NCBI GenBank assembly: GCA_043800705.1
Contig: JAZDMS010000040.1
Location: 10,378-74,377 of the forward strand
Length of the DNA stretch: 64,000 nt
Direction: 5' to 3'
Origin: Candidatus Altiarchaeota archaeon
GTDB taxonomy: Archaea; Altiarchaeota; Altiarchaeia; IMC4; SCGC-AAA252-I15
The position numbers and the translations under genes are program-made. This document shows positions 9,366 to 36,566 of this stretch, in pieces (within the stretch, counting starts at the first letter, position 1; each line of letters begins with the position of its first letter). A model generated the notes under the pieces. The model did no database searches. It was not told the origin of the DNA and saw only the letters and a list, made by a program, of their open reading frames with translations.

Positions 9366-10876
9366 TCGTCCTCGACTTCGGAGGCCAGTACTGCCACCTC
9401 ATAGCACGGAGGATAAGGGAGCTTGGAGTCTACTCCGAGGTCATGGCCTCCGACACGTCCGCAAAGGAACTCAAGGCAACGGGCGGCCTCAAGGGTGTCA
9501 TCCTCTCCGGCGGAGCCGCATCCGTCTACGACGCAGGCAGCCCGAAATACTCCCCTGACCTACTCGAAGCCGGAGTCCCGATACTCGGCATCTGCTACGG
9601 CCACCAGCTGATAGCGCACATTGCGGGCGGATCCGTCGAAGGCGGGAAGGCCGGAGAATACGGGCTCACGGAGCTCGCAGTCATGAAGGCGGAAGGCATC
9701 CTGAAGGGGGTCAACGGCCGCACGCCGGTCTGGATGAACCACCGCGACGTAGTGACCAAACTCCCGCCCGCGTACAAGGTCCTGGCCACAACCGCGAACA
9801 CGCCTGTTGCGGCGTTCGGCAACCCTAAACAGAACATTCACGGCGTCCAATTCCACCCCGAGGTGACCCACACCCGCGAGGGGATGAGCATACTCGAGAA
9901 CTTCGTCGAGATATGCGGCGCAAGCCGCGACTGGAGCATGAAGGACTTCACCGTCAACTCCGTAGAGGAGGCGAAGTCGGTCATCGGCGGAAGGAGGGCG
10001 ATCATCGGCCTGTCCGGCGGAGTCGACTCGTCGGCCGCTGCGGTCCTCCTGTCACGGGCCATCGGCGACAGGCTCACGGCGGTCTACGTCGACACCGGCC
10101 TCATGCGCTACCGAGAGACCGAGTTCATGGAAGAGACCTTCTCGGGCAGGGAGATGGACTTCAGGATCGTCAGGGCCGCCGACAGGTTCTTCGCGGCATT
10201 GAAGGGCGTCACCGACCCCGAGCAGAAGAGGAAGATTATCGGGGGCCTGTTCGTAGACATATTCGAGGAGGAAGCCGTGAAAGTCGGCGCCGAAGTCCTC
10301 GTCCAAGGCACGATATACTCGGACCGGATAGAGTCCGGGGTCACCAAGCACTCGGACAACATCAAAAGCCACCACAACGTCGGCGGACTCAAGGAGAAGA
10401 TGAAGCTGGAAGTCTACGAGCCGCTCCGGGACCTGTACAAGGACGAGGTCCGCGAGATCGCAAGGCAGCTGAAGCTCCCGGAGAAGATAATCACAAGGCA
10501 CGTGTTCCCCGGCCCCGGCCTCGCCATAAGGATCATCGGAGAAGTCAACCCGAAGACGGCGGACATATGCAGGAAGGCGGGCAACATCGTCGAGGAGGAG
10601 CTGAAGAAGGCGGGAATCTACGAAAAATACTGGATGGGGTTCGCGGTCCTTCTGCCGATAAAGAGCGTCGGCATCCAGGGCGACTGCCGAAGCTACAAGC
10701 ACCCCGTCGTCGTGCGCATAATCGAGTCGAAGGACGCCATGACCGCCAACTTCAGCAAGGTCCCCTACGAGGTGTTGGAGTCCATATCGACGAGGATAAC
10801 GAACGAGATAGCCGACATCAACAGGGTCGTCTACGACATAACCAACAAGCCCCCAGCGACCATGGAATGGGAGTGA
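9353..10876 (+). CDS. guaA: GMP synthase (fused glutamine amidotransferase + ATP pyrophosphatase)
   Basis: LDFGGQY, GICYG, QFHPEV, SGGVDS, IKSHHNVGG, FPGPGL and KPPATMEWE motifs. Confidence 0.97.
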   Translation: MEKIVVLDFGGQYCHLIARRIRELGVYSEVMASDTSAKELKATGGLKGVILSGGAASVYDAGSPKYSPDLLEAGVPILGICYGHQLIAHIAGGSVEGGKAGEYGLTELAVMKAEGILKGVNGRTPVWMNHRDVVTKLPPAYKVLATTANTPVAAFGNPKQNIHGVQFHPEVTHTREGMSILENFVEICGASRDWSMKDFTVNSVEEAKSVIGGRRAIIGLSGGVDSSAAAVLLSRAIGDRLTAVYVDTGLMRYRETEFMEETFSGREMDFRIVRAADRFFAALKGVTDPEQKRKIIGGLFVDIFEEEAVKVGAEVLVQGTIYSDRIESGVTKHSDNIKSHHNVGGLKEKMKLEVYEPLRDLYKDEVREIARQLKLPEKIITRHVFPGPGLAIRIIGEVNPKTADICRKAGNIVEEELKKAGIYEKYWMGFAVLLPIKSVGIQGDCRSYKHPVVVRIIESKDAMTANFSKVPYEVLESISTRITNEIADINRVVYDITNKPPATMEWE

Positions 10877-10889
10877 CGGCGGTCCAAAC

Positions 10890-11630
10890 CTACAATACGA
10901 CACTCTCTTGGCCGCTGACCCATCTGGCTATCTCCTGCGGGCTCGCATGTTCTATCTGGTGCATCCTGACGTCCGCCGCCGACTTGAGAAGCTGGAACAG
11001 GATTAGAAGCAGGGTCGGGCCTGCCATGCTCAGATAGTCCGCCGTGCTCCCCAGTCCAACGAGATACAAGCCCATGGACAGAAAGATCCCGCCGACGTAG
11101 ATAAAACCCGAGGCGATTATGGTCAGGTGCATGGGCAAAATCCTGGCGAACGGGATTGCAGCCACGACCCCTATGTTCAACCTTTTTGAGCTATCCTCCC
11201 TGACATTGTGTATGTAGGAGAATCCGTGGTTGACGAGGAATATTGCCACGGCCAGGAGCATCCACGGAATCTCCCCCGACAGGATCCGGTATCCCATATC
11301 ACTCAAGGCAAAGAGCAGGAATACGGCGTAGGCGGCATGGAAAAATCCGAATCCGATAATAAAAATGACGGTCACCCAGGCTTTCACGGCCGATGAAGGG
11401 GTCAACGGCAGGCCGTTTATCTCCACCCCTTCGGTGGAATAATCCCCGAGGCTGAGCATCCTAAGTAGGCTGAATAGCCCGATGATGAGGCTCTGGCACC
11501 AGTAAACCCACAGGACCGTCATCAGGTTCCAACCCTCCAAGACAGCCAGCAGAATCACGAACAGATTAGAGGCTGCAAGCGACACTGCCGAAGGATCAGA
11601 CCATGCACTCTTCGCCGCCGCCTCAGGCAT
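10890..11630 (-). CDS. Multi-pass membrane protein (DUF6498-like)
   Basis: LAASNL...GW..VLWVYW, FGFFH, PFARILPMHLTII pattern. Confidence 0.7.
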   Translation of the reverse strand: MPEAAAKSAWSDPSAVSLAASNLFVILLAVLEGWNLMTVLWVYWCQSLIIGLFSLLRMLSLGDYSTEGVEINGLPLTPSSAVKAWVTVIFIIGFGFFHAAYAVFLLFALSDMGYRILSGEIPWMLLAVAIFLVNHGFSYIHNVREDSSKRLNIGVVAAIPFARILPMHLTIIASGFIYVGGIFLSMGLYLVGLGSTADYLSMAGPTLLLILFQLLKSAADVRMHQIEHASPQEIARWVSGQESVVL

Positions 11631-11682
11631 AGCCTATATCTGACTGCAGTGATAATAAACCCTCAAACAAAGTAACTATGCT

Positions 11683-11778
11683 ATGAGAATCCGCGACATC
11701 GGCGGCGAATTCACGCTAATCAACCGACTCGTATACGACATAACCAATAAACCCCCCGCGACCATGGGGTGGGCGTGA
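11683..11778 (+). pseudogene. Chimeric remnant: thiL 5' end fused in frame to guaA 3' end
   Basis: MRIRDIGGEFTLIN-RLVYDITNKPPATMGWA* versus ThiL MKIKDIGGEFALIN and GuaA INRVVYDITNKPPATMEWE*. Confidence 0.85.
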
Positions 11779-11781
11779 ACG

Positions 11782-12975
11782 TCAAAGCCCGGTTATTCTG
11801 TATCTGATATTCTTTCCGGCAGTTCCGTAACCCGCTTCGAATTCCAGCCTAGCCTCTTTATCCAGGTATCTGCCGGATATAATCCCTTTATCCTGCCATT
11901 GCGTGCCATTACCCTCAGCATCGAAGGAGACCGCGTAGTCATACTCTCCCCCCTTTACCCCACCGCAGCCGGGCCCTGAAGCCATCCCGTTCAACTGGAA
12001 TACCATAGTCTTTGTGAACCTGACTACGGGCTTCTCGGCGAGATCCTGGTCCAGGAAAGTTCCCTCAGGCATCATATCCCCGTAGCCCCTACCGCCAGTA
12101 ATCCCCTGGTTCTGGGGCGGGTCCATGTCGACCCCATCCATCATCAAATTAGTTATCCTGCAATCGACTCCGTTCTTTGAGATTTTAAGGGTTGACCCGT
12201 CCAACTCCCCCTCTTCCCCCCCAAACACCAGGGTGAATACCGATTTGTCCGGCTCCGATGAGCCGAAGAAGGAAATGGGCGCGATAGCCAGCCTATCGAA
12301 ACCGTCGACCCTTACGACCTCCGTCGGATTCAGGGGGCTGAGACCCGTCACGGATGAAAAAGCGAGCAGGAAAAAGATTGATGCCCCAAACAGCATCCCC
12401 CCCGGAATCAGCCAACATAGGACAGCCTTAATAGCGCTCATCCTGCAGGTCTGACGAAGGATAAGCGTCAGCAGATAGAATGAAAAAATATGCGGGATAT
12501 AGCTTACGACGATAGCCCCCATTCCAAAGACCGGCGATATGACCCTCTCCAAAATCCCCTGGATCAACGGCTGCACAACAGCGGCGATGAGGATATAAAC
12601 CGGGAAATAAACCGACGCCATCATATAATAGAGCTCAGTGAACGTGCATCTTCCGCCAAGGATCCGTGCGACAAGATACTCCCCTCCTGCAAAAATGAAC
12701 GAGGCAATGAGGCCCATGATGGGATACCCGACCAGGCAGAAGATGAACATGAGGCCTACGATCACAAGGGGGCTCCCGGTTGCCAGCATCATGAGGGGCA
12801 GGGCAAACGCAGCAAACAATGACGCAATAAGGACGACTTCCACGCCTCTCGTCATGGATGCCCGAGGCAGCTGCCTGGAAATCAGGGCGGAGGGGTTTTT
12901 AAACAAAAGAACGGCTTTTTCGCGGAACCTCAATTCCACGCTCAAATCATTTGCAGAAACCGGCTCACCTTCCAC
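11782..12975 (-). CDS. Yip1-like membrane protein with extracellular C-terminal domain
   Basis: About 5 TM segments with ARILGG..F, followed by a soluble domain with paired Cys. Confidence 0.65.
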   Translation of the reverse strand: MEGEPVSANDLSVELRFREKAVLLFKNPSALISRQLPRASMTRGVEVVLIASLFAAFALPLMMLATGSPLVIVGLMFIFCLVGYPIMGLIASFIFAGGEYLVARILGGRCTFTELYYMMASVYFPVYILIAAVVQPLIQGILERVISPVFGMGAIVVSYIPHIFSFYLLTLILRQTCRMSAIKAVLCWLIPGGMLFGASIFFLLAFSSVTGLSPLNPTEVVRVDGFDRLAIAPISFFGSSEPDKSVFTLVFGGEEGELDGSTLKISKNGVDCRITNLMMDGVDMDPPQNQGITGGRGYGDMMPEGTFLDQDLAEKPVVRFTKTMVFQLNGMASGPGCGGVKGGEYDYAVSFDAEGNGTQWQDKGIISGRYLDKEARLEFEAGYGTAGKNIRYRITGL

Positions 12976-13040
12976 TGAATAATCTATCTGCGGGAATCCC
13001 TTAAATAATCCCTATATCATCCGATCCGTCAGAACAAGGA

Positions 13041-13072
13041 TCAGCAAAGTCCGGTACGAAGTGTTGGCGTCC
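13041..13072 (+). repeat. Diverged fragment of guaA 3' region
   Basis: 27/32 nt identical to 10752-10783; SKVRYEVLAS versus SKVPYEVLES. Confidence 0.7.
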
Positions 13073-13078
13073 CTCACA

Positions 13079-13729
13079 TTATTCCGATCGCCTGCAGTAT
13101 CCGGTCACACAATACAGGTTGCCTATCTTTTTGACTTCATGACTGGGGAAGCCGCTTTCCGCCATCAACGAATCCACGCGGCTTCTACTGTAGAAATATA
13201 CTTCACACCCTCCCAGCATCAGCCTCGTCTTTCTGATAGGTGCCCTCCAGGTCATCAGCCTGGGAAAAGATAAAACGACCACGTCCCCTGTCGCATCCCG
13301 CATCTTCTTGAGTAATGGCAGAGGCTCCTTAACGTAGTCGAATAATCCCATGCCTATGCACGCATCGAATTTCTCTGCGCCAACGTAGGCGTCTAGGCTC
13401 GAATGTATGAAACTGCATCTGTCATCAACGCCGTTTTCCCGGGCGTTTCTCCTGGAAAGCCTTACCATGTTTTCCGATATGTCCAGGCCGACCACGCGCA
13501 GGGCTCCGTGTCTTGCGGCTTCCACGCTGTACTTCCCGCTTCCGCATCCCACGTCAAGAACAGTTTTCCCCTCCAATGGCCGGATCTTTCCCATCGCATA
13601 CTCGAATCGCCCGTACATGTCTGCCCTGAAGATGCGGTCGATCAGGTTCGACAACGCCGACTTATCGTGAGAATAAATCTTCTGGAACGACTCCGACTCG
13701 CTATTCCAATATTCCCTTTGGGTTTTCAC
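13079..13729 (-). CDS. Class I SAM-dependent methyltransferase
   Basis: VLDVGCGSG, VVGLDIS and FD motifs; likely GTG start overlaps the upstream stop. Confidence 0.85.
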   Translation of the reverse strand: MKTQREYWNSESESFQKIYSHDKSALSNLIDRIFRADMYGRFEYAMGKIRPLEGKTVLDVGCGSGKYSVEAARHGALRVVGLDISENMVRLSRRNARENGVDDRCSFIHSSLDAYVGAEKFDACIGMGLFDYVKEPLPLLKKMRDATGDVVVLSFPRLMTWRAPIRKTRLMLGGCEVYFYSRSRVDSLMAESGFPSHEVKKIGNLYCVTGYCRRSE

Positions 13730-14547
13730 AGCTCTAGACCCTCCCTTATGCAAGTGAACCTGAAATCATCTAAAAGGCGCTCAAGCCGCCCGCGAGTCCC
13801 CCCGAGATTGCGGTAATGCCTGAACCTCTTGGTTAAGGGCAGTTCCACGCGAGGCTGCCCGGGATCGAGCTCCCAGGGATGTATATAAAAGACTACTGGC
13901 CGGCCATTATTATTGCAATTCCTGATACAGTACCTTGTATAGGCATACGGGAATATGCGGAAGTAGCCGCCGCCGCTGCAAGGCAGCCGCATGCCGAAAA
14001 ACTCCGCGCAGGAGAGCGGGAATTCGGTTATTCCGGCGGATATCTTGTACGGCTTAAGCGGCGCATCGGGCACGCCATAATCCGGATGGAAAGAGATAGG
14101 AAAAACTGACGAGTCATACTTGAGCCCATATTCCTCCAACACCTCCAACGCCCAAAAAGTCTCCGGTTTTAGCGTGAATGAGGGAGCCCGGTACCCCAGG
14201 ATTTTCTGTTTAACGCCGCAGTCCCTGACGCAGTCCAAGGCCTTCCCGACGTCTATCCTAAATTCTTCCTTATCCATCTGGCTCAACAGTGAATGGCCGT
14301 ATCCGTGAATCCCTATCTCATGGCCGGCCTCGTCTATCTTCCGGATCAGATCAGGTACACGCTCCGCAATCCATCCCAAAACGAAGAAAGTGGCCTTAAC
14401 CTTGTGGATTTCGAGCAGATCAAGTATCTGGTTTAACCCAATCCCGACTCTCAACTCGCATGAGTCCCAATTGCGTCTGTCGATGACCCGGCTGAGATTG
14501 CTGACGCAAAACCAATCCTCCACATCCACGGAAAAATAATTCAACAT
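13726..14547 (-). CDS. Polysaccharide deacetylase (DUF3473-type)
   Basis: SVDVEDW, ATFFVLG, HEIGIHGYGH, GYRAPSF, YDSS, GGGYFR and YIHPWE motifs. Confidence 0.9.
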   Translation of the reverse strand: MLNYFSVDVEDWFCVSNLSRVIDRRNWDSCELRVGIGLNQILDLLEIHKVKATFFVLGWIAERVPDLIRKIDEAGHEIGIHGYGHSLLSQMDKEEFRIDVGKALDCVRDCGVKQKILGYRAPSFTLKPETFWALEVLEEYGLKYDSSVFPISFHPDYGVPDAPLKPYKISAGITEFPLSCAEFFGMRLPCSGGGYFRIFPYAYTRYCIRNCNNNGRPVVFYIHPWELDPGQPRVELPLTKRFRHYRNLGGTRGRLERLLDDFRFTCIREGLEL

Positions 14548-14683
14548 ATGCCGGTATAGTATTACCCCGCAGGATAAAAAATCTCCAGCTTAAAAACCGC
14601 CCTCAAACGGGGGATTGATGCGTCGGATCCTTAGGCGACGACGCTCTTGACACATATGAAGCCAACGGAATACGATAGAACGA

Positions 14684-15280
14684 TCAGGCATCCTTCTCGA
14701 TGCCGTCGGCTATATCGCATAATACGTTGATCATCTCAGCCATCCTCTTTGGCTCGTAGATTATCCTCCGGCTCTTGAATAAAATCTCCCCCTGTTCTGT
14801 CGATACCTCATCCCTGCTGTGAATCATCAATCTTTTCAGCCTGGATTCCACCGAATCGGTAAACACTCTGGCAGCTTTTGACTTGTCGGGCGCATAAATG
14901 TTCAATTCCCCGTTTTTCCCCTCGCCTCTTTTTACGAGAAAATTGTCGCTCTCACCCTCGTATGCCGCATATACCCATGTCGCATACCTCTCGATCAATC
15001 CTTTCCTTTCGAGTCGCACCCCCGCTTGTCTCCCCCTCACCTCGAAATCCACGCATGTTCCCGGATTCCATCCATCTGGTATTTCGCACCCCAGTTCCTC
15101 TGAAAGCTCCCTCAGCACCCTCTGAAACCTTGGTTTGGTGCTGATCTCATACCACATATACGGTTGGCTGCCGCTCAGCAGTATCATGCCCCCCTTCGGG
15201 CCGATCAAACGGGCGACTAACAGCATAAAGGCTGCGAAAGCTAACAGGATAATGGACGCCAGAGAAGAACTAATCTCCAT
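14684..15280 (-). CDS. Hypothetical protein with N-terminal membrane anchor
   Basis: 198-aa ORF with hydrophobic N-terminus. Confidence 0.6.
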   Translation of the reverse strand: MEISSSLASIILLAFAAFMLLVARLIGPKGGMILLSGSQPYMWYEISTKPRFQRVLRELSEELGCEIPDGWNPGTCVDFEVRGRQAGVRLERKGLIERYATWVYAAYEGESDNFLVKRGEGKNGELNIYAPDKSKAARVFTDSVESRLKRLMIHSRDEVSTEQGEILFKSRRIIYEPKRMAEMINVLCDIADGIEKDA

Positions 15281-15319
15281 GGTGTTTTATTCATCTCAGT
15301 ACAATAAATGCAAGATAAC

Positions 15320-16264
15320 ATGAAAATCAAGGACATAGGCGGCGAGTTCGCCCTCATCAACAGGGTTGCTCGGCCTGGCGGGGCGGTCGTCGGAGTAGGC
15401 GACGACGCGGCGGTCCTGAAGTATACGAAGGAGCGGTATCAGCTTTTCACGACCGACATGCTCTGCGACGGCGATCATTTCCGCCGCGACTGGGCCAGCC
15501 CCGAACAGATAGGGATGAAGGCGATGGAGGTCAACGTCTCAGACATCGCAGCAATGGGCGGCCTCCCCACATACGCTGTCATCTCAATATCACTGACACA
15601 TGACACGTCGGTCGAGTTCATGGACCGCCTCTACAAAGGCTTGTACCACGTCGCCGACAAATACGACCTCAACATCGTCGGCGGAGACACCACGCACGCG
15701 GACATGATGGTCATAAACGTCTCAATGCTCGGAGAAGTGGAAAAGGACAGATTATGCCTGCGCTCAGACGCGAAGGTCGGCGACCTCATATGCGTCACAG
15801 GCGACCTCGGAAAAAGCGCCGCAGGCCTCGAACTTTTGAAGGGGGGAATGCGCGGCGAGCTCACAGCGTATCTGGAGCCGAAATGCAGGCTAAAGGAGGC
15901 CAGGAAAATCTCACACTATGCAAACGCGATGATAGACGTCTCCGACGGCCTGGCAAGCGAAGTCAACCACATCTGCCATATGAGCAAGGTCGGGGGCCTC
16001 GTGAGAAAGGAGGACATACCCATATCCAAATCCACTATCGAATCCGCGCATAAGGTCGGCAAAGACCCGTACGATTACGCATTGAACGGGGGGGAAGACT
16101 TCGAGCTCGTGTTCACCGTCCCTCAAGCGTACCTGGGGAAGGTGGCGCACATAGATTGCCCGGTCACTGTCGTCGGAGAGATAGTGGAGAAAAGGCAGGG
16201 TTTGACGATTGAGTCGTGCGGCAGGAAAAAGCCCCTGAAGGGAGGATACGACCACTTCAAGTAG
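15320..16264 (+). CDS. thiL: Thiamine-monophosphate kinase
   Basis: GEFALI, GDDAA, NVSDIAAMG, GGDT, DVSDGL, GGEDFEL and GYDHF motifs. Confidence 0.95.
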   Translation: MKIKDIGGEFALINRVARPGGAVVGVGDDAAVLKYTKERYQLFTTDMLCDGDHFRRDWASPEQIGMKAMEVNVSDIAAMGGLPTYAVISISLTHDTSVEFMDRLYKGLYHVADKYDLNIVGGDTTHADMMVINVSMLGEVEKDRLCLRSDAKVGDLICVTGDLGKSAAGLELLKGGMRGELTAYLEPKCRLKEARKISHYANAMIDVSDGLASEVNHICHMSKVGGLVRKEDIPISKSTIESAHKVGKDPYDYALNGGEDFELVFTVPQAYLGKVAHIDCPVTVVGEIVEKRQGLTIESCGRKKPLKGGYDHFK

Positions 16265-17900
16265 GTGTTTGGTTGAAGCGGAAAACCGCCATGGCCGGAT
16301 ATTCTCCCATTTCCACGCGCTCGTATTCGACGCTGTCCTTCATCATTTTCTCCAGTGTGGCGATGTCGACCTGATTTTTCGGAGCTAAACCGGATTCTAA
16401 CGACACGTAAGCCGGATCATACGATCTTAACAGAGCCAGTCCGCCCTCAGGTTTCCACTCCCAATTCCTCAGGATGATTTGATCGCATTTTGCGCCATTT
16501 CGGAACCGGAAAAGGGCTGAATAATACTTTGCCTCCTGAGCCCGATAATCGTATCCGAAGATCTCGACAATCCTCATAGTACCGTTCGCCTGAAGGCCGC
16601 AGGCTTTCTCCATGAATCCCATAAGCTGCTCTTTATCGCTGTCGTGCGTCTGCAGCCCATTGAGGAAGGCTGTCCCGTCAGGTTTCCCCGCCAAACTGAA
16701 AGCCCACGAATCCACAAGGAGCAACTGTAATGTTAGGAGCGCTAAGGCGGCAAGCGCGAAAGTTCTCGCATACTTGTCTGCCCGGCTTAAAATCCAACAG
16801 GAAACGACTGCGAAATATGGAAGTAGTGGGAGTAGGAATCTCGGGAACTCGTTGGTGGAAAAGGAAAAGACCAGATAAAACAGGATTATCTGAAAAATCG
16901 AGGCCATCAAATATATGTCCCACGATTTGAATCCCTTTTTCACCGTGATCCATGCGAGAGCAAAAGGGGCGAAGATGAACATTGCGATCGTGAAGCCTGT
17001 TGTCAGGTTCACCCCCGATATCCCGGCCAATATCTGGAGCTTGCTGATGACATCCGCCCTATGCCCCCATCGGGGGGATGTTGCGGAAGAAACCGCGTGG
17101 CCCCAGGCCGGGCCGATGTGTAAATAGAACCAGGCGGACGCCGACGCCGCCAAAACCAAGGCTGCGAACGCCAAGAGCGGGTTCAACTTCGCGAAGCCAA
17201 AGCCTTTCCCTCGGATTCTGGCCAACACTAGGGCCGCGGGCCCGATGCAGTAAAGGGGGGAGGACAGTTTCGAGAGGGCTCCTATGGATGCGGCTGCCAA
17301 AATGCTTGCAAGGATCGTTGCCTTGTCCATGGAGGCTGCACGGACCATAATCCTCATGAACAGGGTCACCGACAGGAGGACGAAGACGTCAGAGTAATAC
17401 TGCCCCGACATTGCGACGAATATCGGCGCGGCAGCGATAACGGCGCAGCCCGCAAGGGAGATGAGACGGTTGAAGTACATGGACTTCAGCGTTCCAAACA
17501 TGATCCCAAGGGTCAGAACCTGCACAAGGAAGACCGGCAGCCGAAGGCCGAACTCCATCGATTTCGTCAACAATCCAAGCGGGACGAAAAACTGCCCGAC
17601 CCAAATCATCAAAGGCGGCTTATATGGGGATATTTGAAAAACCAAAGACAGCCAATTTTTGGGGTTGCTTTTTAGCTCCGAATAGAGCCTCAAAGACTCT
17701 TCGGCGTAGTCGAGGCAGTCGCCACTCGGAAGTTTGGCGTCTAGGGCTATCCACACCAGACTCGGAGCCGCAAGAAGCAGGATGAAAAGGACAGCATATG
17801 TGTCCCCTCCTGCACGGAGACTTTTCAGCCGAGATTCCGGCAGCATCCAAGGTAATCTATTTTCGATGAATAATAATCGTTTTAAAAATGCCAGCCTCAT
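16257..17900 (-). CDS. Membrane glycosyltransferase (GT-C fold, ArnT/PMT-like)
   Basis: D..Y early loop, YKPPL, R-P, many TM helices, PRFLLPLLP. Confidence 0.75.
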   Translation of the reverse strand: MRLAFLKRLLFIENRLPWMLPESRLKSLRAGGDTYAVLFILLLAAPSLVWIALDAKLPSGDCLDYAEESLRLYSELKSNPKNWLSLVFQISPYKPPLMIWVGQFFVPLGLLTKSMEFGLRLPVFLVQVLTLGIMFGTLKSMYFNRLISLAGCAVIAAAPIFVAMSGQYYSDVFVLLSVTLFMRIMVRAASMDKATILASILAAASIGALSKLSSPLYCIGPAALVLARIRGKGFGFAKLNPLLAFAALVLAASASAWFYLHIGPAWGHAVSSATSPRWGHRADVISKLQILAGISGVNLTTGFTIAMFIFAPFALAWITVKKGFKSWDIYLMASIFQIILFYLVFSFSTNEFPRFLLPLLPYFAVVSCWILSRADKYARTFALAALALLTLQLLLVDSWAFSLAGKPDGTAFLNGLQTHDSDKEQLMGFMEKACGLQANGTMRIVEIFGYDYRAQEAKYYSALFRFRNGAKCDQIILRNWEWKPEGGLALLRSYDPAYVSLESGLAPKNQVDIATLEKMMKDSVEYERVEMGEYPAMAVFRFNQTPT

Positions 17901-17943
17901 GGCAATTCCACCGATTATATACTCCTTCGACAAATATCCCTTT

Positions 17944-18669
17944 ATGGTAGTGAACATCGTCGTGACCGGCAAGGTCCCTGACAATCCAACCATCATCGAA
18001 GCGTTCCCGAGCAGGGGATACGTCAGCACCATAGCAGGCAACCACCTCATCCGCCAGGAGAAGATGGAACAGATCGGCTACATAGAGTCCGACAAGCTCG
18101 ACGCCATCGCAGTCGTCCACGACGGCAAGCCCATGCACCCCATACGGATATACTCGAAGGGCGACCTGGTCGTCCTGTTCTCCGAGCTGATAATCCCCCT
18201 CAACCTCACACACGAGTTCAGCACCGAAGTCATAAACTGGTTCAAGAAGATCAAGCCGAAGAAGGCGATCCTCCTGGCAAGCATCCCCGGGGTCGAGACC
18301 AGCAAGGAGCATGAGATATTGGCCGTGTCCACCGACGGGCAGATGATCGAGAAGATCAAGGCGTTGAAGATCAAGCAGATGAACGAGGGCGTCCTCACCG
18401 GGATGAGCTCGAGCCTGATGATAAAATGCTGCTGCTTAGAAATACCAGTCACGTCTCTGATGGTGGAGACGACCTACATACCCGACGTGCTCGCGGCGGC
18501 GAGCCTCATGAAGATGCTAAGCGACATCCTCGGCCTTACCGTCAGCATAGAGGAGCTAACGAAGGCGGGCCACGACATCGAGGAGAAGTTCCGCGAAAAC
18601 CTCGAACAGATGAAGATCGGCCAGGAAAACTTCAAAGAGATGCACCAACAATTGCCAATGTACAGATAG
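17944..18669 (+). CDS. Proteasome assembly chaperone (PAC2 family)
   Basis: IIEAFPSRGYVSTIAG, PMHPIRIY, GVLTGM, PD..AA; C-terminal HbYX motif (MYR). Confidence 0.85.
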   Translation: MVVNIVVTGKVPDNPTIIEAFPSRGYVSTIAGNHLIRQEKMEQIGYIESDKLDAIAVVHDGKPMHPIRIYSKGDLVVLFSELIIPLNLTHEFSTEVINWFKKIKPKKAILLASIPGVETSKEHEILAVSTDGQMIEKIKALKIKQMNEGVLTGMSSSLMIKCCCLEIPVTSLMVETTYIPDVLAAASLMKMLSDILGLTVSIEELTKAGHDIEEKFRENLEQMKIGQENFKEMHQQLPMYR

Positions 18670-18809
18670 CGGTCTTCCGTCTATCGCCCTGGCAAACGGT
18701 CCCGTCTTGGGCCTTGTTTGCGGCATGGGCTTGTTGCGGCGTCAGCCATCCATCAGAGAGACTGAGGCCTGAGGCCGAATGTCTCTCATTCGCCGGCCTT
18801 AGAAGGCCG

Positions 18810-18857
18810 CAGGAGAACTTCAAGGAAATGCACCAGCAGCTGCCGATGTACCGCTGA
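18810..18857 (+). repeat. Synonymously diverged copy of the last 15 codons and stop of the PAC2 gene
   Basis: QENFKEMHQQLPMYR* is encoded at both 18622-18669 and 18810-18857. Confidence 0.9.
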
Positions 18858-20024: not shown

Positions 20025-20068
20025 GGATTCTAGGCCGCCGGAAAGACGGCGGCGACGGTGATACTATT

Positions 20069-20803: not shown

Positions 20804-21076
20804 GTGGCGGACATCCGGAAGTGGCTTCTTGGATCGACGCGCAGGTGGCTCCGGCGCGGTTCTCGCCCCCGCACCCCCACAAGCACAGTCCACTGAAGTT
20901 ATGGCTGCTGCCTTCCGGCCCTGACCAGATTCCTAAAATAGACCATCCAGTGAGACGAAGGCTCACGGTTCCGCACCGGACCCGCACGGCAACCCAAGAC
21001 TCGCCTCCCGGCATTCAGCCCCGCCTAAGACGATTTGCGGCAACAGGCTACGCCTACCAGCCCGGCCTAGTCCACC
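20803..21076 (-). ncRNA. ffs: Signal recognition particle RNA (7S RNA)
   Basis: Minus strand begins GGTGGACTAGGCCGGG, contains helix-8 motif GGTCAGGGCCGGAAGGCAGCAGCC, and 5' GGTGGAC pairs with 3' GTCCGCC. Confidence 0.9.
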
Positions 21077-21151
21077 GGTCAATGTATACGCAAAATCAGA
21101 TTAAAAAACCAACCTCTCTCGCTCTTATACCTGGAAAATAATTTTTGTATT

Positions 21152-22546
21152 ATGTCCCCCATTATTCGTGTTCTCTTCGGCAAATCGAAAGGAAGATTTT
21201 TTCTGTTCATGCTATCCCTGCTGTCTGCTTTTATCGTTGTCGGCCAAGCGTCAGCCACCGAAGTCATTGTTGTCGGCAGGGAGCCGGCCACCAAGGTCAT
21301 TCTTGTCGGCGGGGCGTCAGACAGGGAGCTTAAGGACTGCTGGGATAGCGGATACGCGCCCGAAAGGGTCTCATGCTATGCGAGGTATGCTTTCGAAATG
21401 GACGATCCCGGAATATGCGATCAAAGCCCCTATCATAGGTTTGACCGGGATCCATGTTTTAAGCTCTTAACAACGTCCTTGAAAAACAACACTCCGTGCG
21501 CAAGCATGAGGCGCGGGAATTCCCAAGCATTGTGCTATCGGATCATGTCCGTCTCAGACGACGGCGCACTCGCAGCATCGGTCCTCGGCAATTTCTCGGC
21601 CCCTGAAGACTGCGGTGTAGATTGCATGTCCCGCATCGCCGTTTTGATGCAAATGCCGGAAATCTGCAATACGATGATGTTCAGTCGCGATTCCTGTTTT
21701 GCTGAAGTCGCGATTAGGCTAAACGATTCTGGCGTGTGCGAAAGGATGCTAGGAAACAGGGGTCGTTGCTATTCCGCGATGGCTATGAGGCTCGGTAACA
21801 TTTCATTCTGCGACAAGATTGAAACGCCTGACCTAAGGCTCGGCTGCCAGATTGAAATGGCTGTGTGGGCCGGTGACGCGTCAATCTGCCCTAAGGTCGC
21901 TGGCATTAACGTCTCCCGCGGCGACGAATGCTTCATGAAGCTTGCATTGGGGCTGGGGGACGCCTCCTTATGCGGTAACATATCCTTACATCCCGGGGGA
22001 AAATTCCTTAAGAATGATGCTAGCAGGGACAACTGCTTCGAGGAGGTTGCCTTGAGGCTGAGGAACGAATCCGTCTGCAAGAACATCGAAGGCGAGAAAG
22101 ATTGGTGCATTGCAAGAATAGCAAAGGACTATGCCATGTGCGAGAATTTAGAGGGCCCATGCCAGGTATACGTCTGCATGTCCCGTTTGGATGGGGTGAA
22201 AATATCCAATCCGGCTCCCAGCGATTGCGAGATCTATCGCACCCCCCGGGCCATAGTCACCGTAACCTACAACATCAGGATTTTATTACTGGTCATAAGC
22301 ATATTCGTAGCGGCTCTATATTGTCTTGCACAAACCGCGAAAGAGTTGATTTCGTCCCGGAAGGCGGATAGAAGACCGGATATCAAAGCCTTGGCAAAGA
22401 AAATGATCCTGTTCGTCCTGATTTTGGCGGCATTAAACATCCTCGCCTATGCCTACGTATCCATCTATCTCGCATATGAGCCTCCGACGACCGCCGCCGC
22501 AAAATTCAGCGAAATGAAATTTTTTATGGAGGGAGGAGCAATTTGA
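21152..22546 (+). CDS. Cys-repeat surface/membrane protein
   Basis: Signal peptide, repeated D/N-x3-C...RDxC units, two C-terminal TM helices. Confidence 0.75.
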   Translation: MSPIIRVLFGKSKGRFFLFMLSLLSAFIVVGQASATEVIVVGREPATKVILVGGASDRELKDCWDSGYAPERVSCYARYAFEMDDPGICDQSPYHRFDRDPCFKLLTTSLKNNTPCASMRRGNSQALCYRIMSVSDDGALAASVLGNFSAPEDCGVDCMSRIAVLMQMPEICNTMMFSRDSCFAEVAIRLNDSGVCERMLGNRGRCYSAMAMRLGNISFCDKIETPDLRLGCQIEMAVWAGDASICPKVAGINVSRGDECFMKLALGLGDASLCGNISLHPGGKFLKNDASRDNCFEEVALRLRNESVCKNIEGEKDWCIARIAKDYAMCENLEGPCQVYVCMSRLDGVKISNPAPSDCEIYRTPRAIVTVTYNIRILLLVISIFVAALYCLAQTAKELISSRKADRRPDIKALAKKMILFVLILAALNILAYAYVSIYLAYEPPTTAAAKFSEMKFFMEGGAI

Positions 22547-22572: not shown

Positions 22573-22642
22573 CCTCCCGGCACTCAGCCCCGCCTAAGAC
22601 GATTTGCGGCGGCAGGCTGCGCCTGCCAGCCCGGCCTAGTCC
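22573..22642 (-). repeat. Diverged copy of the SRP RNA 5' end
   Basis: 65/70 nt identical to 21004-21073. Confidence 0.9.
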
Positions 22643-30561: not shown

Positions 30562-30562
30562 C

Positions 30563-30677
30563 GGTCTTCGGTTCTCGGTTCTCGGTTTTCCGTCAAGACT
30601 GAAAACTGAGAACTGAAAACTGAAAACTGAAAACTGCAGACAGGAAACCGCAGACCGTGGGCTGAAGGCCGTGGACC
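30563..30677 (+). repeat. Palindromic heptamer-repeat element, copy A
   Basis: (GGTTYTC)n-CGTCAAGACT-(GAAAACT)n starting right after a stop codon. Confidence 0.85.
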
Positions 30678-30720
30678 TCCTATTTTAAGCCTTATTCTCC
30701 TATTCTTTCTGGATACCATC

Positions 30721-31797: not shown

Positions 31798-31803
31798 GCC
31801 CCC

Positions 31804-32451: not shown

Positions 32452-32519
32452 AGATAGGATATGGGAATAAGGATATTATACCGTCCATCCGAGCTCAGCC
32501 CTTTCTTGCGAAGAATCCG

Positions 32520-32559
32520 GAAAGCTGCGCTTTCTGTCGCCGCGGAACTGCGTTCCGCG
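32520..32559. repeat. Pair of REP-like short palindromes
   Basis: GAAAGC-TGC-GCTTTC and CGCGGAAC-TGC-GTTCCGCG. Confidence 0.6.
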
Positions 32560-32572
32560 TAATCGCTAGCGG

Positions 32573-32719
32573 AAAGAAACATATTCGGTTGATATGTGCA
32601 TGTTTGTCCATCAGCAGCTACCCTTGTCGCAAACTTTTCTTTTGTAAAGAAAAGTTTGACCAAAAGAAACATATTCGGTTGATATATGCATATCTGTCCA
32701 TCAGCAGCTACCCTTGTCG
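32573..32719. repeat. 57-bp direct repeat (90-bp period) separated by a perfect 13-bp hairpin
   Basis: 32573-32629 versus 32663-32719 is 54/57 identical; CAAACTTTTCTTT-TGT-AAAGAAAAGTTTG at 32630-32658. Confidence 0.85.
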
Positions 32720-32755
32720 TCACTGGTCGGACTACTTCGCTGTCATCACATGAAC
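32696..32755 (-). ncRNA. C/D box methylation-guide sRNA
   Basis: GTGATGA (C) - 12 nt - CCGA (D') - TGACGA (C') - 12 nt - CTGA (D), terminal stem GTTCA/TGGAC. Confidence 0.8.
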
Positions 32756-32950
32756 AATTATACTAAGCATACTGGCTATATATCCGGAACAGTGGCCTCA
32801 TTTTGCCCCAGTGCTAACCTTCCCCTCCTCCTTGAACATTATCCGAACGCTTCGCCGCTTTTATACTATTCCTCCAATAACTAAACCTATTCAGGAGGGG
32901 GGGTGAATAACACTACCTCTCTGATAAGTCAAATTGAGGTGAAAAGAAAA

Positions 32951-33157
32951 ATGGCTGACATATGGGGAGAAGTTGGAACATCCGCTGGAAAGCTATGGAC
33001 CGCATTGAACAATGGAAAGCCCGCAACCTTGGCTGAAGTCAAGAAAAAAACAGGGCTCGACGACAACATGATGGCTATGGCCATCGGATGGCTGGCCCGC
33101 GAAGAAAAAGTAATCATCGACCGCAAAGGCGCAGTAGTCTCGGTCAAGCTAAAATAG
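32951..33157 (+). CDS. Winged-helix protein (DUF2582-like)
   Basis: VG..AGKLW..L ... MAIGWLAREEK pattern. Confidence 0.8.
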   Translation: MADIWGEVGTSAGKLWTALNNGKPATLAEVKKKTGLDDNMMAMAIGWLAREEKVIIDRKGAVVSVKLK

Positions 33158-33191
33158 GGATAAAAATACTCATCTAGGGGGGTGAGGGGTA

Positions 33192-34358
33192 ATGCGCATA
33201 GCAGTATTCTCATGGGAGACGCTAAATTCCATACCTGTGGGGGGAGTAGCAGCCGTAGTCACGCAGCTGTCAGAGGCCCTTGCCGCAGGCGGTGACGAAG
33301 TCCACGTCTTCACGCGGATGTCGGAAGGCAAACAGGAGCATGAGCGGATAAACGGCGTCTGGGAACACCGCTGCCTCTGCCCCGCATGCGACGACTTCAT
33401 CGAATACATGGACCACATGTGCGACAGCCTCGTCTCATGCTTCCACTGGGCAGAAGAGAAATACGGCAGATTCGACGCCGTACACGGCCACGACTGGCAC
33501 GTCGTCAACGCCCTCGCGAACATAAAGGCGAACAAGGGCTACACGAACGTCGTCTGGACCGCCCACAGCACAGAATACGGCAGAAACGGCAACAACTACG
33601 CAGACAACTGGTTCTCGGCAAGGATCCGCCACAGGGAATGGCTCGGCGGCTACATATCCTGCAAAGTAACGACAGTATCCCACATCATGCGAAACGAGCT
33701 CGGCCGCGAATACCAGATACCAGAGAACAAGGTCACAGTCATCTACAACGGCACCAACGTCAAAAAGTTCGAGGGCACCGTCGACGCAGGGCGGATAAAG
33801 GAAAGATACGGCTTCCACCCCCTCGACCCGCTGATACTCTTCTTCGGCCGCGTAGCCTACCAGAAAGGCCCCGACCTCCTATTGGAGGCGATGCCCGACG
33901 TCATACGCGAGTACTACAACGCAAGGCTCATCTTCGCAGGCTCGGGCGACATGATAGAACACCTCAAAGGCAGGGCAGCGTACCTCGGCGTGGGGGATAA
34001 GATGCGGGTCCTCGGCTACGTCAACGAGAAGACGAAGCTCGAGCTCTTCAAGTCATGCGACCTCGTCTGCGTCCCATCAAGGAACGAACCCTTCGGCATA
34101 ATCACCCTCGAAGCCTGGGCCTGCGGCAAACCCGTCGTCGCATGCGACGTCGGAGGCCCATCCGAGATAATCGACAACTTCAGGACCGGAGTGAAGGTCA
34201 ACATTACGCCGGAGAGCATCGCGTGGGGGATAAAATACCTCCTCGGCGACCGAAGCGGCCAAAGCCTGATGAAGATGGGCGCAGCCTGCCGCAAAGAGGC
34301 CGAAAAATACGACTGGAGAGAGCTCGCAAAACAATACCAGGCAGTATACCGGGCATAG
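33192..34358 (+). CDS. GT4 glycosyltransferase (glycogen-associated)
   Basis: SWE...VGG, HGHDW, HSTE.GR, FFGR..QKG and EPFGIITLEA motifs. Confidence 0.9.
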   Translation: MRIAVFSWETLNSIPVGGVAAVVTQLSEALAAGGDEVHVFTRMSEGKQEHERINGVWEHRCLCPACDDFIEYMDHMCDSLVSCFHWAEEKYGRFDAVHGHDWHVVNALANIKANKGYTNVVWTAHSTEYGRNGNNYADNWFSARIRHREWLGGYISCKVTTVSHIMRNELGREYQIPENKVTVIYNGTNVKKFEGTVDAGRIKERYGFHPLDPLILFFGRVAYQKGPDLLLEAMPDVIREYYNARLIFAGSGDMIEHLKGRAAYLGVGDKMRVLGYVNEKTKLELFKSCDLVCVPSRNEPFGIITLEAWACGKPVVACDVGGPSEIIDNFRTGVKVNITPESIAWGIKYLLGDRSGQSLMKMGAACRKEAEKYDWRELAKQYQAVYRA

Positions 34359-34398
34359 GAGTGGATAAACTATAATGACCGCCTTCTTTTTGCCGAAT

Positions 34399-35025
34399 TT
34401 ATGCCTTCAATATCCCCAAAAGATGCTGTTTAACGGCATCTATGTCCCTTTTTAGATGTCCCTTAGCCTTCAGGGACTCCAGATCTTCGATGACTGATTC
34501 GAGTTTTTCCCGAAGATCATGCTGGGTGACTCTTCTCTTGAAGTACTCGTAGTCAAACCTCCCGAGGTGAGTCTGGGAAAGAATCACTGACATGCTGCCT
34601 ATTTCATCCGATTCGGAACCTTTGATCGCGAGTTTGGACGCCGCTAAATCCTCAGCTGAGATGAAATTCACAGCGACGCCTTCAAACTCCTCAGTTTGTC
34701 TGCGTCTCCATGCCTCATCGTCGAATTCGAACCCGTCCACCTTTACCCAGAAACCCGCCTCCCCTGCATCAGACCTGAAAACAGTGTAGGAGTTACCCAG
34801 GAATTCCCTGAAGGATTTGCCCTCGACCTGCGAGAAACCCGCATCTTCAAGGGATTAAAAAAGGGAATCCTTTACCGTAGATCTGTCCAATGCGACCTCC
34901 AAGTCGAACGTCGCCATTGGCGTCCCATATTTTACGCTTGCCAAGCCGCCGATGACGAGATATCTAACGCACTCTTCCTCTAAGAGCCGACCTAAGCTCC
35001 GAAGCAAACTCCCCATCCTGGCCAT
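34399..35025 (-). pseudogene. Nucleotidyltransferase-like pseudogene
   Basis: MARMGSL...YLVIGGLA..YGTPMATFDLE, in-frame TAA at 34855-34857, continues to ISAEDLAASKL. Confidence 0.7.
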
Positions 35026-35154
35026 CTTCCCTCAGCCTGTCGAACTCGGCGAGCCTCCTGCGCCAATCACATCTTCCTGCCATCTCAAGGCATCGAAGAA
35101 GCCGCATCCGCCGACGATCCATAAGATAATACCTGCCTAAACCGAAATAAAAAG

Positions 35155-36426
35155 TCAAACCCCATTTTTCGGTTTTTTCACGGTCTTTTCGGCCTTTTTC
35201 CCGGATCCTCCGTTTTCGAGGTTGTATCTGACCACCTTCTCCTTGAAATCCATTATCGCCGCGTGGTAGTTGAGGCCCGCGTCGAACGGGTTGCCGTGGT
35301 GGCTGAAGTACTCGTGGACGGAGCCGTCGCCCATCCCCTTCGTGCACATGTAGTAATAGTGGTCGCTTATCTGGAACATCTTCCACACCTTCATCATCTC
35401 CGGGTTCTTGGAGGCCCTCACGTCGTTTTCCATCTCCTTCAGCCTGGAGAAGTTCAAATGCTGCATGTGGTTGCCGAGCCATGCGCTGGCGTCCCGCTCC
35501 ATGTCAGCCCAGCTGACTGTCTCATACCAGGGGACCGTGATCTCCCCCCTCGGATAATACCTGTCCGCGACCTCGCTCGGCGTGTTGAACTCCAGGTTCT
35601 GCTTCTCCAGTATCTTATGCGGCATCGCATCCAGGAAGTGGAATATGCCAGTGTCCTCCCACTGGTGTTCGCCGAAGGTCTCATAGTCCATGAAGATGTT
35701 GATCGTGTCCTCGGCCGACCAGCTCAGCCAGTCCGCATACTTCTCCGCGGAAAGCGGCCAACCCGGCCACCACTTCGCGCTGAAACGGTATCCGACGTCG
35801 TCGGAGAGCTTGTAATTCCTCAAAAGGACCTTCAGCTTCCCCCCCTTCCTCGTATAGACGAAATTAGGGCTTCTCCACCCGTCCAAGACCCTCTCGATCC
35901 CCTCGGTGAGTATGGCCTTGAACCCCATCTCCTCAGCCTCCTTCGCGATCGTGTCGTGGTACAGGAGCTCCGTGTTCCTGAACACCTTCGGCTTCTGGCC
36001 GAGGTAGTCCTTCACCATCTGCTGGTGCTCCAATACCTGCTCCCTGAACTCCTCCCTCTGCTCGAAGAGGCTCGCCAAGGAATGGTACCTGGTCTCGTTG
36101 ATGAACTCGCAGCAGCCGGACTTCCCCAACTGCCTGAAAAGGTCCAAAAGGTCCGGCTCCCACCTCTCCATCTGCTCTAAAATGGAACCGGAAAGCGAAT
36201 ACGAGACCTTGAACTTCCTGTTCTGGCCTTTGAGGCGGTCGATGTTGGCCATGATGTTCTTCGTCGCAGGCCAATAACACTTCTTCGCCACCTTATGCAA
36301 AGTCCACTCATTGAGGCCGTTGTCGAAATAATAGTCCTCTAGGCCGTTCTTCGGGACCCCATTCGGCCAGAACCACTTCAGACGAAACGGCTGGTGGACT
36401 TGAAAATATAAGCAGACGGATGTCAT
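35155..36426 (-). CDS. GH57 alpha-amylase
   Basis: FQVHQP, ETRYHSL, FRNTEL, MDYETFGEH, SWAD and SDHYYYM motifs. Confidence 0.95.
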   Translation of the reverse strand: MTSVCLYFQVHQPFRLKWFWPNGVPKNGLEDYYFDNGLNEWTLHKVAKKCYWPATKNIMANIDRLKGQNRKFKVSYSLSGSILEQMERWEPDLLDLFRQLGKSGCCEFINETRYHSLASLFEQREEFREQVLEHQQMVKDYLGQKPKVFRNTELLYHDTIAKEAEEMGFKAILTEGIERVLDGWRSPNFVYTRKGGKLKVLLRNYKLSDDVGYRFSAKWWPGWPLSAEKYADWLSWSAEDTINIFMDYETFGEHQWEDTGIFHFLDAMPHKILEKQNLEFNTPSEVADRYYPRGEITVPWYETVSWADMERDASAWLGNHMQHLNFSRLKEMENDVRASKNPEMMKVWKMFQISDHYYYMCTKGMGDGSVHEYFSHHGNPFDAGLNYHAAIMDFKEKVVRYNLENGGSGKKAEKTVKKPKNGV

Positions 36427-36466
36427 ATCACTCCCCCCGCTTTATTCGGCCCCTCTTTCTTTTTCG

Positions 36467-36505
36467 CCAGCGTTTTTCTTTCTGGGAGAGAAAGAAAAAG
36501 GCTGG
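36467..36505. repeat. TTTTTCTTT/AAAGAAAAA hairpin element
   Basis: CCAGC-G-TTTTTCTTTCT...AGAAAGAAAAA-G-GCTGG; resembles 32630-32669. Confidence 0.65.
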
Positions 36506-36509
36506 GCTT

Positions 36510-36566
36510 GAACCACTTCAACCTGAACGGCTGATGGACTTGAAAGTATAGGCAGACTGAAGTCAT
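36510..36566 (-). repeat. Synonymously diverged copy of the first 19 codons of the GH57 gene
   Basis: MTSVCLYFQVHQPFRLKWF is encoded at both 36566-36510 and 36426-36370. Confidence 0.9.

Follow-up and report, generated by a model that had tools for sequence, protein, structure and literature searches.

Truncated copies of conserved gene ends often lie against hairpin feet in an Altiarchaeota genome

DNA inserts at the ends of conserved genes and displaced gene tips have been described in several systems, for which we draw on excerpts of the four sources cited here. Integrative elements occupy gene ends as inserts of 9-23 kb that carry an integrase (PMC9897764), and the tycheposons of Prochlorococcus are islands at few conserved gene or tRNA sites in cells lacking common transfer machinery (10.1101/2020.12.28.424599). 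For the displacement of Rhs C-terminal tips, a circular intermediate and homologous recombination without an integrase have been proposed (PMC2935791), and homology-facilitated illegitimate recombination was invoked for the displacement of effector-immunity modules of the type VI secretion system (PMC5361080). Here, we analyze a stretch of 64,000 nucleotides (nt) from a Candidatus Altiarchaeota metagenome-assembled genome (MAG), called the window below (G000:C25:10378-74377, where G000 is the source MAG), in which protein and RNA genes are accompanied by a second, truncated copy of their own end. The original prediction, made from the sequence alone, had read five such loci as traces of cassette acquisition without an integrase. 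We find that the pattern extends over the genome and that the first base of the displaced copy often follows directly on the 3′ foot of a hairpin, in several cases of an order-wide family that we call F1.

REP/BIME, RAYT and IS200/IS605 elements are familiar examples of small hairpin repeats in intergenic DNA, with stem positions that covary and a flanking motif that is conserved. REPs occur as join points of duplications, and these elements are not known to create long flanking duplications. The tyrT/rtT repeats of E. coli are gene-less units, each of which ends in a copy of a tRNA 3′ end. The routes by which archaea take up DNA are poorly known.

Second copies of gene ends in the window and across the genome

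G000 comprises 2.0 Mb in 43 contigs, with a completeness of 87.55% and a contamination of 0.85%, and the closest relatives of its guaA are found in Candidatus Altiarchaeota MAGs at 75% amino-acid identity. The window contains the core genes guaA and thiL, a PAC2-family gene, the signal recognition particle (SRP) RNA gene and the genes for FtsZ, Nop56/58 and a GH57 protein, with unknown or accessory genes in between. In the following, B1 denotes the copy that is continuous with the gene and B2 the displaced copy. All five loci (guaA/thiL, PAC2, SRP RNA, a C/D-box-like small RNA (sRNA) and GH57) carry a truncated second gene end on the same strand. Four were returned by a repeat search, and the PAC2 pair, which is short and divergent and falls below the reach of the repeat finder, was read directly from the sequence.

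The PAC2-family gene (17905..18669, plus strand; Pfam PAC2) is aligned by its relatives from residue about 58 of a longer open reading frame (ORF). It is followed by a gene-less spacer (18670..18809) that ends in an F1 two-hairpin element at 18748-18809 (G000:C25:29125-29186), matched by a covariance model with 59 bits and folding with -31 kcal/mol (z -3.1). The displaced end (18810..18857, plus strand) begins 0 nt after F1 and encodes an identical peptide of 15 amino acids (aa) plus a stop, in host-like codons. Between the last 15 codons (18622-18666) and their second version (18810-18854) there are 9 nt differences in 8 codons, all of them synonymous, as had been claimed; the stop codons differ as well (TAG vs TGA).

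At the GH57 gene (35155..36426, minus strand; Pfam Glyco_hydro_57), it is the 5′ end that is repeated. B1 consists of this end plus 12 nt upstream (36365-36438), and the displaced start (36505..36578, minus strand) is 81% identical to it. The spacer between them (36439..36504) holds, on the plus strand and hence antisense to GH57, a long-loop variant of F1 (TTCGCCAGC...GGCTG) whose 3′ foot abuts B2; it folds with -13.9 kcal/mol (z -3.2). The claim that all changes are silent holds for the first 19 codons, which specify the same peptide with 8-9 synonymous changes, and fails at the edge of the repeat, where two changes are non-synonymous. At the other end of GH57, the last 15 codons (35155-35200) have a codon adaptation of -1.01, compared with about 0.3 for the gene body, and no repeat was found there; this 3′ end may also have been replaced.

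Two RNA genes in the window are affected in the same manner. The SRP RNA gene (20805..21077, minus strand; Rfam RF01857, 132 bits) contains B1 in its 5′ part (21004-21073), while the displaced 5′ fragment at 22573..22642 on the same strand is 93% identical and was itself recognized as a partial SRP match in the Rfam scan. Its base pairs are kept, three G.U pairs in one helix having become G-C or C-G, in agreement with the original prediction. Between the two copies lies a payload gene of 464 aa without a family match and with atypical codon usage (21152..22546, plus strand), and the hairpin beside the displaced fragment is a weak one of 5 bp. The C/D-box-like sRNA (32699..32753, minus strand) has a weak Rfam sR2 match (E 0.62), its boxes having been read from the sequence. 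Here B1 is the 3′ half plus 36 nt downstream (32663-32719), and the displaced 3′ half (32573..32629, minus strand) is 95% identical to it by repeat search, with a perfect 13-bp palindromic hairpin (32630..32662; -10.8 kcal/mol, z -5.4) between the copies. The two copies differ at 3 positions, every one of them downstream of the D box.

The arrangement is more complex between guaA and thiL. The final 60 nt of the guaA gene for GMP synthase (9353..10876, plus strand; Pfam GATase and GMP_synt_C) form B1 (10817-10876), to which the displaced copy on the same strand, at 11719..11778, is 83% identical (repeat search). The two copies enclose a payload gene of the DUF6498 family (10890..11630, minus strand; Pfam) with atypical codon usage (codon score 45 for 246 aa vs 228 for the 507 aa of guaA) and a truncated copy of the thiL 5′ end (11683..11724, plus strand; local alignment score 39 vs a shuffled maximum of 26). 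The latter is joined in frame to the displaced guaA end at a common ATCAAC... stretch. The topology of the resulting thiL-5′::guaA-3′ chimera is that of a junction in a circle, or of an unequal exchange, with closure at a microhomology of about 12 nt (11-12 nt). Further island genes identified by Pfam (Yip1-like, methyltransferase and polysaccharide deacetylase, together with a 198-aa ORF) occupy 11782..15280 on the minus strand and are absent between guaA and thiL in relatives. A third guaA fragment, derived from inside the 3′ region of the gene, is located at 13041..13072 (plus strand; local alignment score 39 vs a shuffled maximum of 27), and the intact AIR synthase-related thiL follows at 15321..16264 (plus strand; Pfam AIRS, start read from the sequence). 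Thus, the pieces predicted at 11683 and 13041 are real, whereas local alignment found no similarity to thiL or guaA at about 14600, where another had been proposed. By synteny, gene content at this slot differs in relatives, where guaA, thiL and PAC2 are adjacent (loci L001, L002, L083 and L085), without the 4.4-kb island.

Low codon scores, or failure in a codon-based gene caller, characterize the guaA-thiL island genes, the 464-aa gene near the SRP RNA, a PMT_2 protein and a sulfatase. The latter two, a PMT_2 glycosyltransferase-like ORF (597 aa, 16257-18050) and the sulfatase (441 aa, 36732-38057), flank PAC2 and GH57 and look recently acquired. Generic methyltransferase matches aside, no phage families appeared among the payload proteins.

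The gene-end duplication seen in the window is confirmed and generalised by the rest of G000, whose loci we label by contig (such as C13a, C37, C26 and C30a); G001, G003, G004, G016, G017, G026, G036 and G038 are other genomes, and L numbers denote loci. Genes were called with a crude codon-based caller of our own (2048 ORFs in G000). In a genome-wide self-blastn, local repeats within 6 kb were direct in 290 cases and inverted in 2. When each protein was compared with its own contig, 73 of the 75 short strong matches within 6 kb were on the same strand; 14 of the 75 were C-terminal ends repeated downstream and 9 were N-terminal ends repeated upstream, and the copy was mostly in non-coding DNA. 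Protein- and nucleotide-level pairs together involve about 22 protein-gene ends, and 9 of 21 tRNA genes, the SRP RNA and the C/D sRNA are affected as well. The suggestion of many unrelated targets is therefore borne out by this gene-end search, with about 30 of them. Most of the spacers measure 9-146 nt and hold no genes. At about 34.3-34.4 kb of contig C30, two displaced copies are present.

The nine tRNA genes are each followed by one or two same-strand copies of their last 18 nt, and no upstream or opposite-strand copies of these 18 nt were found for any of the 21 tRNA genes of G000. The ~70-nt units that follow tRNA genes (for example at C15:52115-52190, C35:49991-50065 and C23:4251-4322) begin with the tRNA 3′ end in inverted form, continue with a small hairpin with an A/T stem and close with the direct copy, which looks like a fold-back design. 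At the tRNA-Met gene (C42:29798-29872), the copy is preceded by an element of another hairpin family, F3.

Hairpins at the junction

The hairpin elements that the original prediction had noted beside accessory genes are not payload. Conserved hairpins take a fixed place, with the 3′ foot against the displaced copy. This position became apparent in an alignment of 14 loci, in which the hairpin lay directly against the displaced copy and the spacers were non-random. The hairpins fall into the families F1, F2 and F3 and simple A/T-rich palindromes. F1 consists of a variable covarying stem, the motif TTCGCC and a conserved second stem (RGCCTTA..TAAGGCYG), and a long-loop variant exists. For the 40 nt on the 5′ side of B2, the mean folding energy over 22 loci is -7.9 kcal/mol, compared with -2.8 kcal/mol for 600 random intergenic 40-mers (p 2e-7); the 40 nt on the 3′ side show no difference from the control. 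At 13 of the 22 loci, the fold energy is below the 5th percentile of the control and B2 begins right at the foot, on the 3′ side, of a strong hairpin. Within the window, a junction hairpin is found at PAC2 (F1), GH57 (long-loop F1, antisense) and the sRNA (13-bp palindrome), and weakly at SRP.

The structure of F1 is conserved. When 17 copies from six genomes are aligned, 7 of 12 predicted pairs show compensatory changes, and the covariance model derived from this alignment matches 32 of the 49 genomes of the order, with 16 copies in G000, 11 in G001, 19 in G003 and 35 in G036. No Rfam family was found for the hairpins. The possibility that hairpin 1 represents a K-turn or a hammerhead core was dropped, as the core motifs are incomplete when judged by eye. 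Nine of 17 exact-motif F1 copies have a significant local repeat, and in all nine this repeat begins at an offset of 0 nt. Among 47 model hits in relatives, which include those of G036, where some of the apparent repeats may come from a mosaic of units instead of from gene ends, 20 have a significant repeat, 15 of them at an offset of ≤2 nt; for 16 further F1 loci, the respective numbers are eight and four. By comparison, only 8 of 300 random intergenic pseudo-elements had a significant repeat, with 2 at an offset of ≤2 nt. In G036 (L159, L162 and L163), F1 occurs in arrays spaced 120-130 nt apart, many of them followed by one shared module, a BIME-like mosaic unlike the single copies of G000.

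These counts also bear on the possibility that two co-assembled strains were placed in tandem by the assembler. G000 is indeed a MAG of 43 contigs, and synonymous differences are what one would see between two strains. But at least ten other assemblies contain the same motif-coupled junction, among them the 10-contig genome G016 (49/49 identical) and the single-contig genome G026, both in the set of further F1 loci. Moreover, copies that diverge by up to 26% would share no assembler k-mers, thiL and guaA have only about 12 nt in common at their joint, and contamination is 0.85%. Because the junction recurs in independent assemblies of sister species and the divergence reaches 26%, a strain chimera is unlikely, and we consider an assembly artefact very improbable as the cause of the pattern.

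The arrangement follows an orientation rule: the gene body is always 5′ of the hairpin and the displaced copy is at its 3′ foot. Where the motif can be oriented in G000, it is sense to the gene at eight of eight C-end loci and antisense at both N-end loci, and the rule applies equally at L102, L104, L152 and L150 of G001. The same gene can be affected repeatedly, with different boundaries. For leuA, a gene assigned by NCBIfam, a hairpin and a repeat mark the 3′ end in 4 of 14 family genomes. The repeats measure 67, 92, 36 and 59 nt and the hairpin differs each time; in G004 and G017 it is a simple palindrome and not F1. In G000, a third, shorter stretch resembling the leuA end follows the second copy (C33:4203-4245), which suggests stacked events. 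At the 5′ end of the gene for ABCE1, F1 is accompanied by a repeat of 146/157 in G000 and of 50/50 in G001 and by none in G003, although the three elements have common flanking sequence and look orthologous. That the repeat boundaries differ between species at leuA and ABCE1 argues against a site-specific recombinase.

In one rival explanation, F1 and the other hairpins are non-autonomous mobile elements that insert near the ends of transcription units, each insertion duplicating a long target stretch of variable length (about 17-160 nt). Survival would be limited to insertions spanning a gene end, and recoded pairs would come from later replacement of gene and element by an allele of another species, possibly with F1 as a homology arm. 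This would suit the many identical or near-identical repeats that flank only a 60-70-nt element (L152 88/90, L150 50/50, L133 49/49, C33 67/67), the several similar F1 copies per genome (16 in G000, 19 in G003 and 35 in G036) and the orthologous-looking ABCE1 elements with repeats of 157 nt, 50 nt or none. It sits less well with the inserted piece itself, of which only the 3′ end and not the left end is conserved, or with the leuA hairpins of G004 and G017, which are not F1. It does not explain kb-sized cassettes and the thiL::guaA chimera, and a symmetric target duplication would not be expected to obey a strict orientation rule. Nor is there an enzyme at hand: no reverse transcriptase (RT) or HUH matches were obtained in G000, G001, G003 or G038, and the single HUH gene, found in G036, is part of the tnpA-tnpB pair of an ordinary IS605, near which no F1 copy lies. 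A link to RAYT or IS605 was rejected on these grounds, and a transposon or miniature inverted-repeat element with a fixed target-site duplication on account of the single conserved end and the repeat lengths of 17 to about 160 nt. On balance, we regard mobile hairpins as unlikely, though as a rival to be taken seriously for a reason given below.

Origin of the copies and competing explanations

The reading that we tentatively prefer, with slightly less than an even chance of being right, is that the loci are scars of recurrent, hairpin-delimited and homology-anchored displacement of gene ends without a site-specific recombinase. A DNA segment would bring a copy of a conserved gene end on one side, maybe a terminator-like hairpin and sometimes accessory genes, and would pair with the resident gene through the homology of the gene end. 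Its far end, which is generally a stable hairpin's 3′ foot, would be linked by non-homologous joining to a position lying a few dozen bases within the resident gene end. The gene would thereby remain intact with the incoming end (B1), and the resident end (B2) would be pushed outward, directly against the hairpin. Diverged relatives as donors would account for synonymous recoding and foreign codon usage, and close kin, or later homogenisation, for near-identical pairs. Between guaA and thiL, a small circle or an unequal exchange closed at the 11-12-nt microhomology could have had the same outcome. Within this model, only events that preserve the gene would be kept, which would explain why gene termini alone are affected and why the orientation rule holds. 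Beyond what was observed, namely the anatomy, the exact hairpin-foot junction, the orientation, the repeated use of the same genes with different boundaries and the codon data, we infer the homology anchor, the foreign origin of the donors, the way in which hairpins define ends and the enzymes involved; exonuclease arrest, cruciform cutting and an RNA 3′ end are candidates for turning a hairpin foot into a DNA end.

The nature of the differences between the copies speaks to the donors. In 18 pairs found by blastn, a set chosen to avoid the bias of protein-level detection, 36, 29 and 89 differences fall at codon positions 1, 2 and 3, respectively (chi-square p 8e-10), and the third-position bias is strong at C13a (2/2/12), C19 (3/0/8), C35 (2/4/14) and GH57 (3/0/6). 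The divergence between B1 and B2 is bimodal, being either 0-7% or 17-26%. At synonymously differing codons, the codon score is poorer in B1 than in B2 at PAC2 (-5.7 vs +2.7), C13a (-11.1 vs +5.1), C37 (-7.1 vs +3.1), GH57 (-5.9 vs -2.5) and C26 (-2.2 vs +0.6). Codon asymmetry together with third-position bias was noted at these five loci and is reversed or absent elsewhere. A local duplicate decaying in place would leave a well-adapted working copy and a degrading spare, which is the opposite; for the divergent class, the reasoning of the original prediction therefore stands. The codons support the view that in this class a gene end selected elsewhere is now the working one and that the resident end was pushed aside recently. 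That both copies had been under selection in different lineages before they met is accordingly in keeping with several pairs, given their third-position bias and codon asymmetry, the codons of the payload and the absence of the island in relatives, but not with guaA. There, the poorer codons are in the displaced B2 and not in B1, so that the polarity of incoming DNA replacing a resident end is reversed and the displaced copy is the one that looks foreign.

The same data limit what a purely local process could have achieved, namely template switching during replication at terminator hairpins combined with gene conversion and without any foreign DNA. Near-identical pairs, the hairpins at the junction and the fold-back-like tRNA units with an inverted and a direct copy of the tRNA end are all in its favor. 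Yet it cannot give a divergence of 17-26% that is almost entirely synonymous with the poorer codons in the functional copy, as at PAC2, C13a, C26 and GH57, and it leaves unexplained the payload genes that are absent from relatives. We assign this local origin a low probability.

A more familiar possibility is that the copies are the attL/attR sites of integrase-bearing viruses, plasmids or islands that have decayed to stubs, or of mini-elements moved in trans. The anatomy is the same as that of integrative elements at tRNA genes in the part of the literature considered (PMC9897764), 9 of the 21 tRNA genes of G000 have downstream copies of their 3′ end, and this 87.55% complete genome encodes one tyrosine recombinase. 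The likeness to att-site restoration that had been pointed out holds for the flanking direct repeats and the restored gene; it breaks down in that there is neither an integrase beside the insert nor a fixed crossover core. About 30 unrelated targets contrast with a single recombinase, spacers measure 9-146 nt, repeat boundaries at the same gene vary between species, and divergent pairs have no shared identical core. In addition, G001 and G003 show the repeat pattern without a Phage_integrase match. In our judgment, it is improbable that att sites underlie the pattern.

Consistent with the statement that the window lacks an integrase, there was none on its contig and none in Pfam scans of its ORFs, the only Phage_integrase match of G000, an Xer-like recombinase, being on contig C17 (487-957). 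The wider label "integrase-free" thus fits the contig and is unprovable for the genome, which is incomplete and has that one tyrosine recombinase. Besides this match, G000 yielded two DDE_Tnp_1 matches and a weak DprA-like one (DNA_processg_A, C5:89391-89582, inside a 605-aa ORF), and there were no RVT_1, Y1_Tnp (Y1 HUH), TnpB-type, resolvase/serine recombinase or rve matches in this 87.55% complete assembly. As all of these genomes are incomplete, the absence of enzymes stays unproven. A diversity-generating retroelement was rejected: there is no RT match, and the differences are mostly synonymous and of several kinds, without an adenine pattern. No integron-type locus was noticed in G000, attC boxes having been judged by eye only.

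Several points weigh against displacement as we propose it. The silent-only rule does not hold genome-wide, since third-position bias is absent at C14, C26b, C9, C23 and C30b and about half of the pairs are 93-100% identical (C33 67/67 and 37/37; G001 50/50 and 90/92). If kin were the donors of these, ordinary two-sided recombination should dominate, and the model would have to be supplemented by gene conversion, or else by another process through which repeats arise de novo. The near-identical pairs are thus its weak point, and for this reason we keep the mobile hairpin as a strong rival; two recombinase-free models, homology-anchored displacement and a mobile hairpin, remain in contention. 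The codon asymmetry is reversed at guaA (B1 +2.0 vs B2 -4.2), C30a and C19. Terminal codons are less adapted throughout the genome (0.12 for the last 15 codons vs 0.25) and the affected genes reach only the 3rd-14th percentile, so that a drop in terminal codon adaptation was discarded as stand-alone evidence for being insufficiently specific. Hairpin-foot joints show no microhomology by eye, although homology-facilitated illegitimate recombination, in the passages of the source concerned with it, is rare, has microhomology-based illegitimate joints and occurs in naturally transformable bacteria (PMC5361080). G000 has no ComEC match and only the weak DprA-like one. C10, where the gene is on the 3′ side of F1, is an exception to the orientation rule or ambiguous, and the gene-end counts depend on our crude gene caller. 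Finally, scanning metagenomes with the PAC2 protein revealed no relative, a search with 30 nt taken unchanged from the displaced PAC2 end had no match, and neither a donor nor an empty-site allele came to light in this way. Species representatives of the same genus are too distant for identifying donors, as their PAC2 identity is only about 65%.

Some observations concern other parts of the genome. Contig C27 (7080 nt, locus L201) has an exact terminal overlap of 141 nt and is circular or closed on a repeat; it was considered as a plasmid donor and rejected, and it encodes S-layer-like, PP-loop ATPase and MarR-type proteins and no recombinase. The starts of contigs C32 (1-130) and C42 (1-117) have the same 17-nt satellite in opposite orientation; for this reason, the two contigs probably adjoin across a tandem array. 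Tandem repeats of 7 nt resembling GAAAACTG lie at 30595-30650 of the window, downstream of large proteins with CarboxypepD_reg repeats, and again at a contig end (C33:1-170).

Comparison with known systems

If correct, homology-anchored displacement would show how genes are gained between core genes in genome-reduced, uncultivated archaea with almost no classical mobile-element enzymes, and it would explain why islands sit at gene and tRNA ends. With an order-wide hairpin family and a reproducible junction, the question of what makes illegitimate joints in archaea becomes testable. The displaced copies are also of practical relevance as decoy starts, decoy stops and tRNA fragments that mislead annotation and can be mistaken for assembly errors. 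A full-text search found no description of such hairpin elements in Altiarchaeota; supplements, possibly with relevant tables, were outside its scope.

The att duplications of integrative elements, as far as the part of PMC9897764 concerned with them goes, are alike in that the insert lies between direct copies of the end of the target gene, which the incoming DNA makes whole again, and unlike in that most inserts here are 9-146 nt without genes and have a hairpin foot at the joint. For Rhs proteins, the portion of PMC2935791 that deals with displacement describes a new tip with a core fragment that displaces the old tip, which is left downstream. This anatomy is analogous at all five loci of the window, and the thiL::guaA chimera has the form of the junction of the proposed circle. 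However, Rhs tips are differing toxins with immunity genes, whereas both copies here specify the same peptide or RNA and belong to housekeeping genes. Homology-facilitated illegitimate recombination, in the same partial sense (PMC5361080), combines one homologous anchor, one illegitimate joint and stacked displaced remnants without an integrase, as would be the case here under the displacement model. Its microhomology has a counterpart in the about 12 nt at thiL::guaA and none that we could see by eye at the hairpin-foot joints, and the literature consulted on it contains no archaeal case.

The design found here differs from the tyrT/rtT repeats in its reach, which includes protein-coding genes, the SRP RNA and an sRNA, and in its association with order-wide hairpin families. 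Tycheposons, for their part, reportedly encode their own recombinases; none was seen here. What is new is the position of the displaced copy at the 3′ foot of a hairpin, and the involvement of housekeeping and RNA genes with the same product from both copies. There is a real chance that this represents a new class of element rather than a variant of gene-end displacement. F1 and its sister hairpins might then be insertion modules of a new kind, an idea that we consider doubtful but worth stating: small structured units of DNA, or derived from RNA, that would home in on conserved gene termini, spare the host gene by bringing or rebuilding a mimic of the terminus, leave long and variable duplications and sometimes drag accessory genes along, using host replication or repair factors only. 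Compared with att-bearing elements and tycheposons, such modules would do without an element-encoded recombinase.

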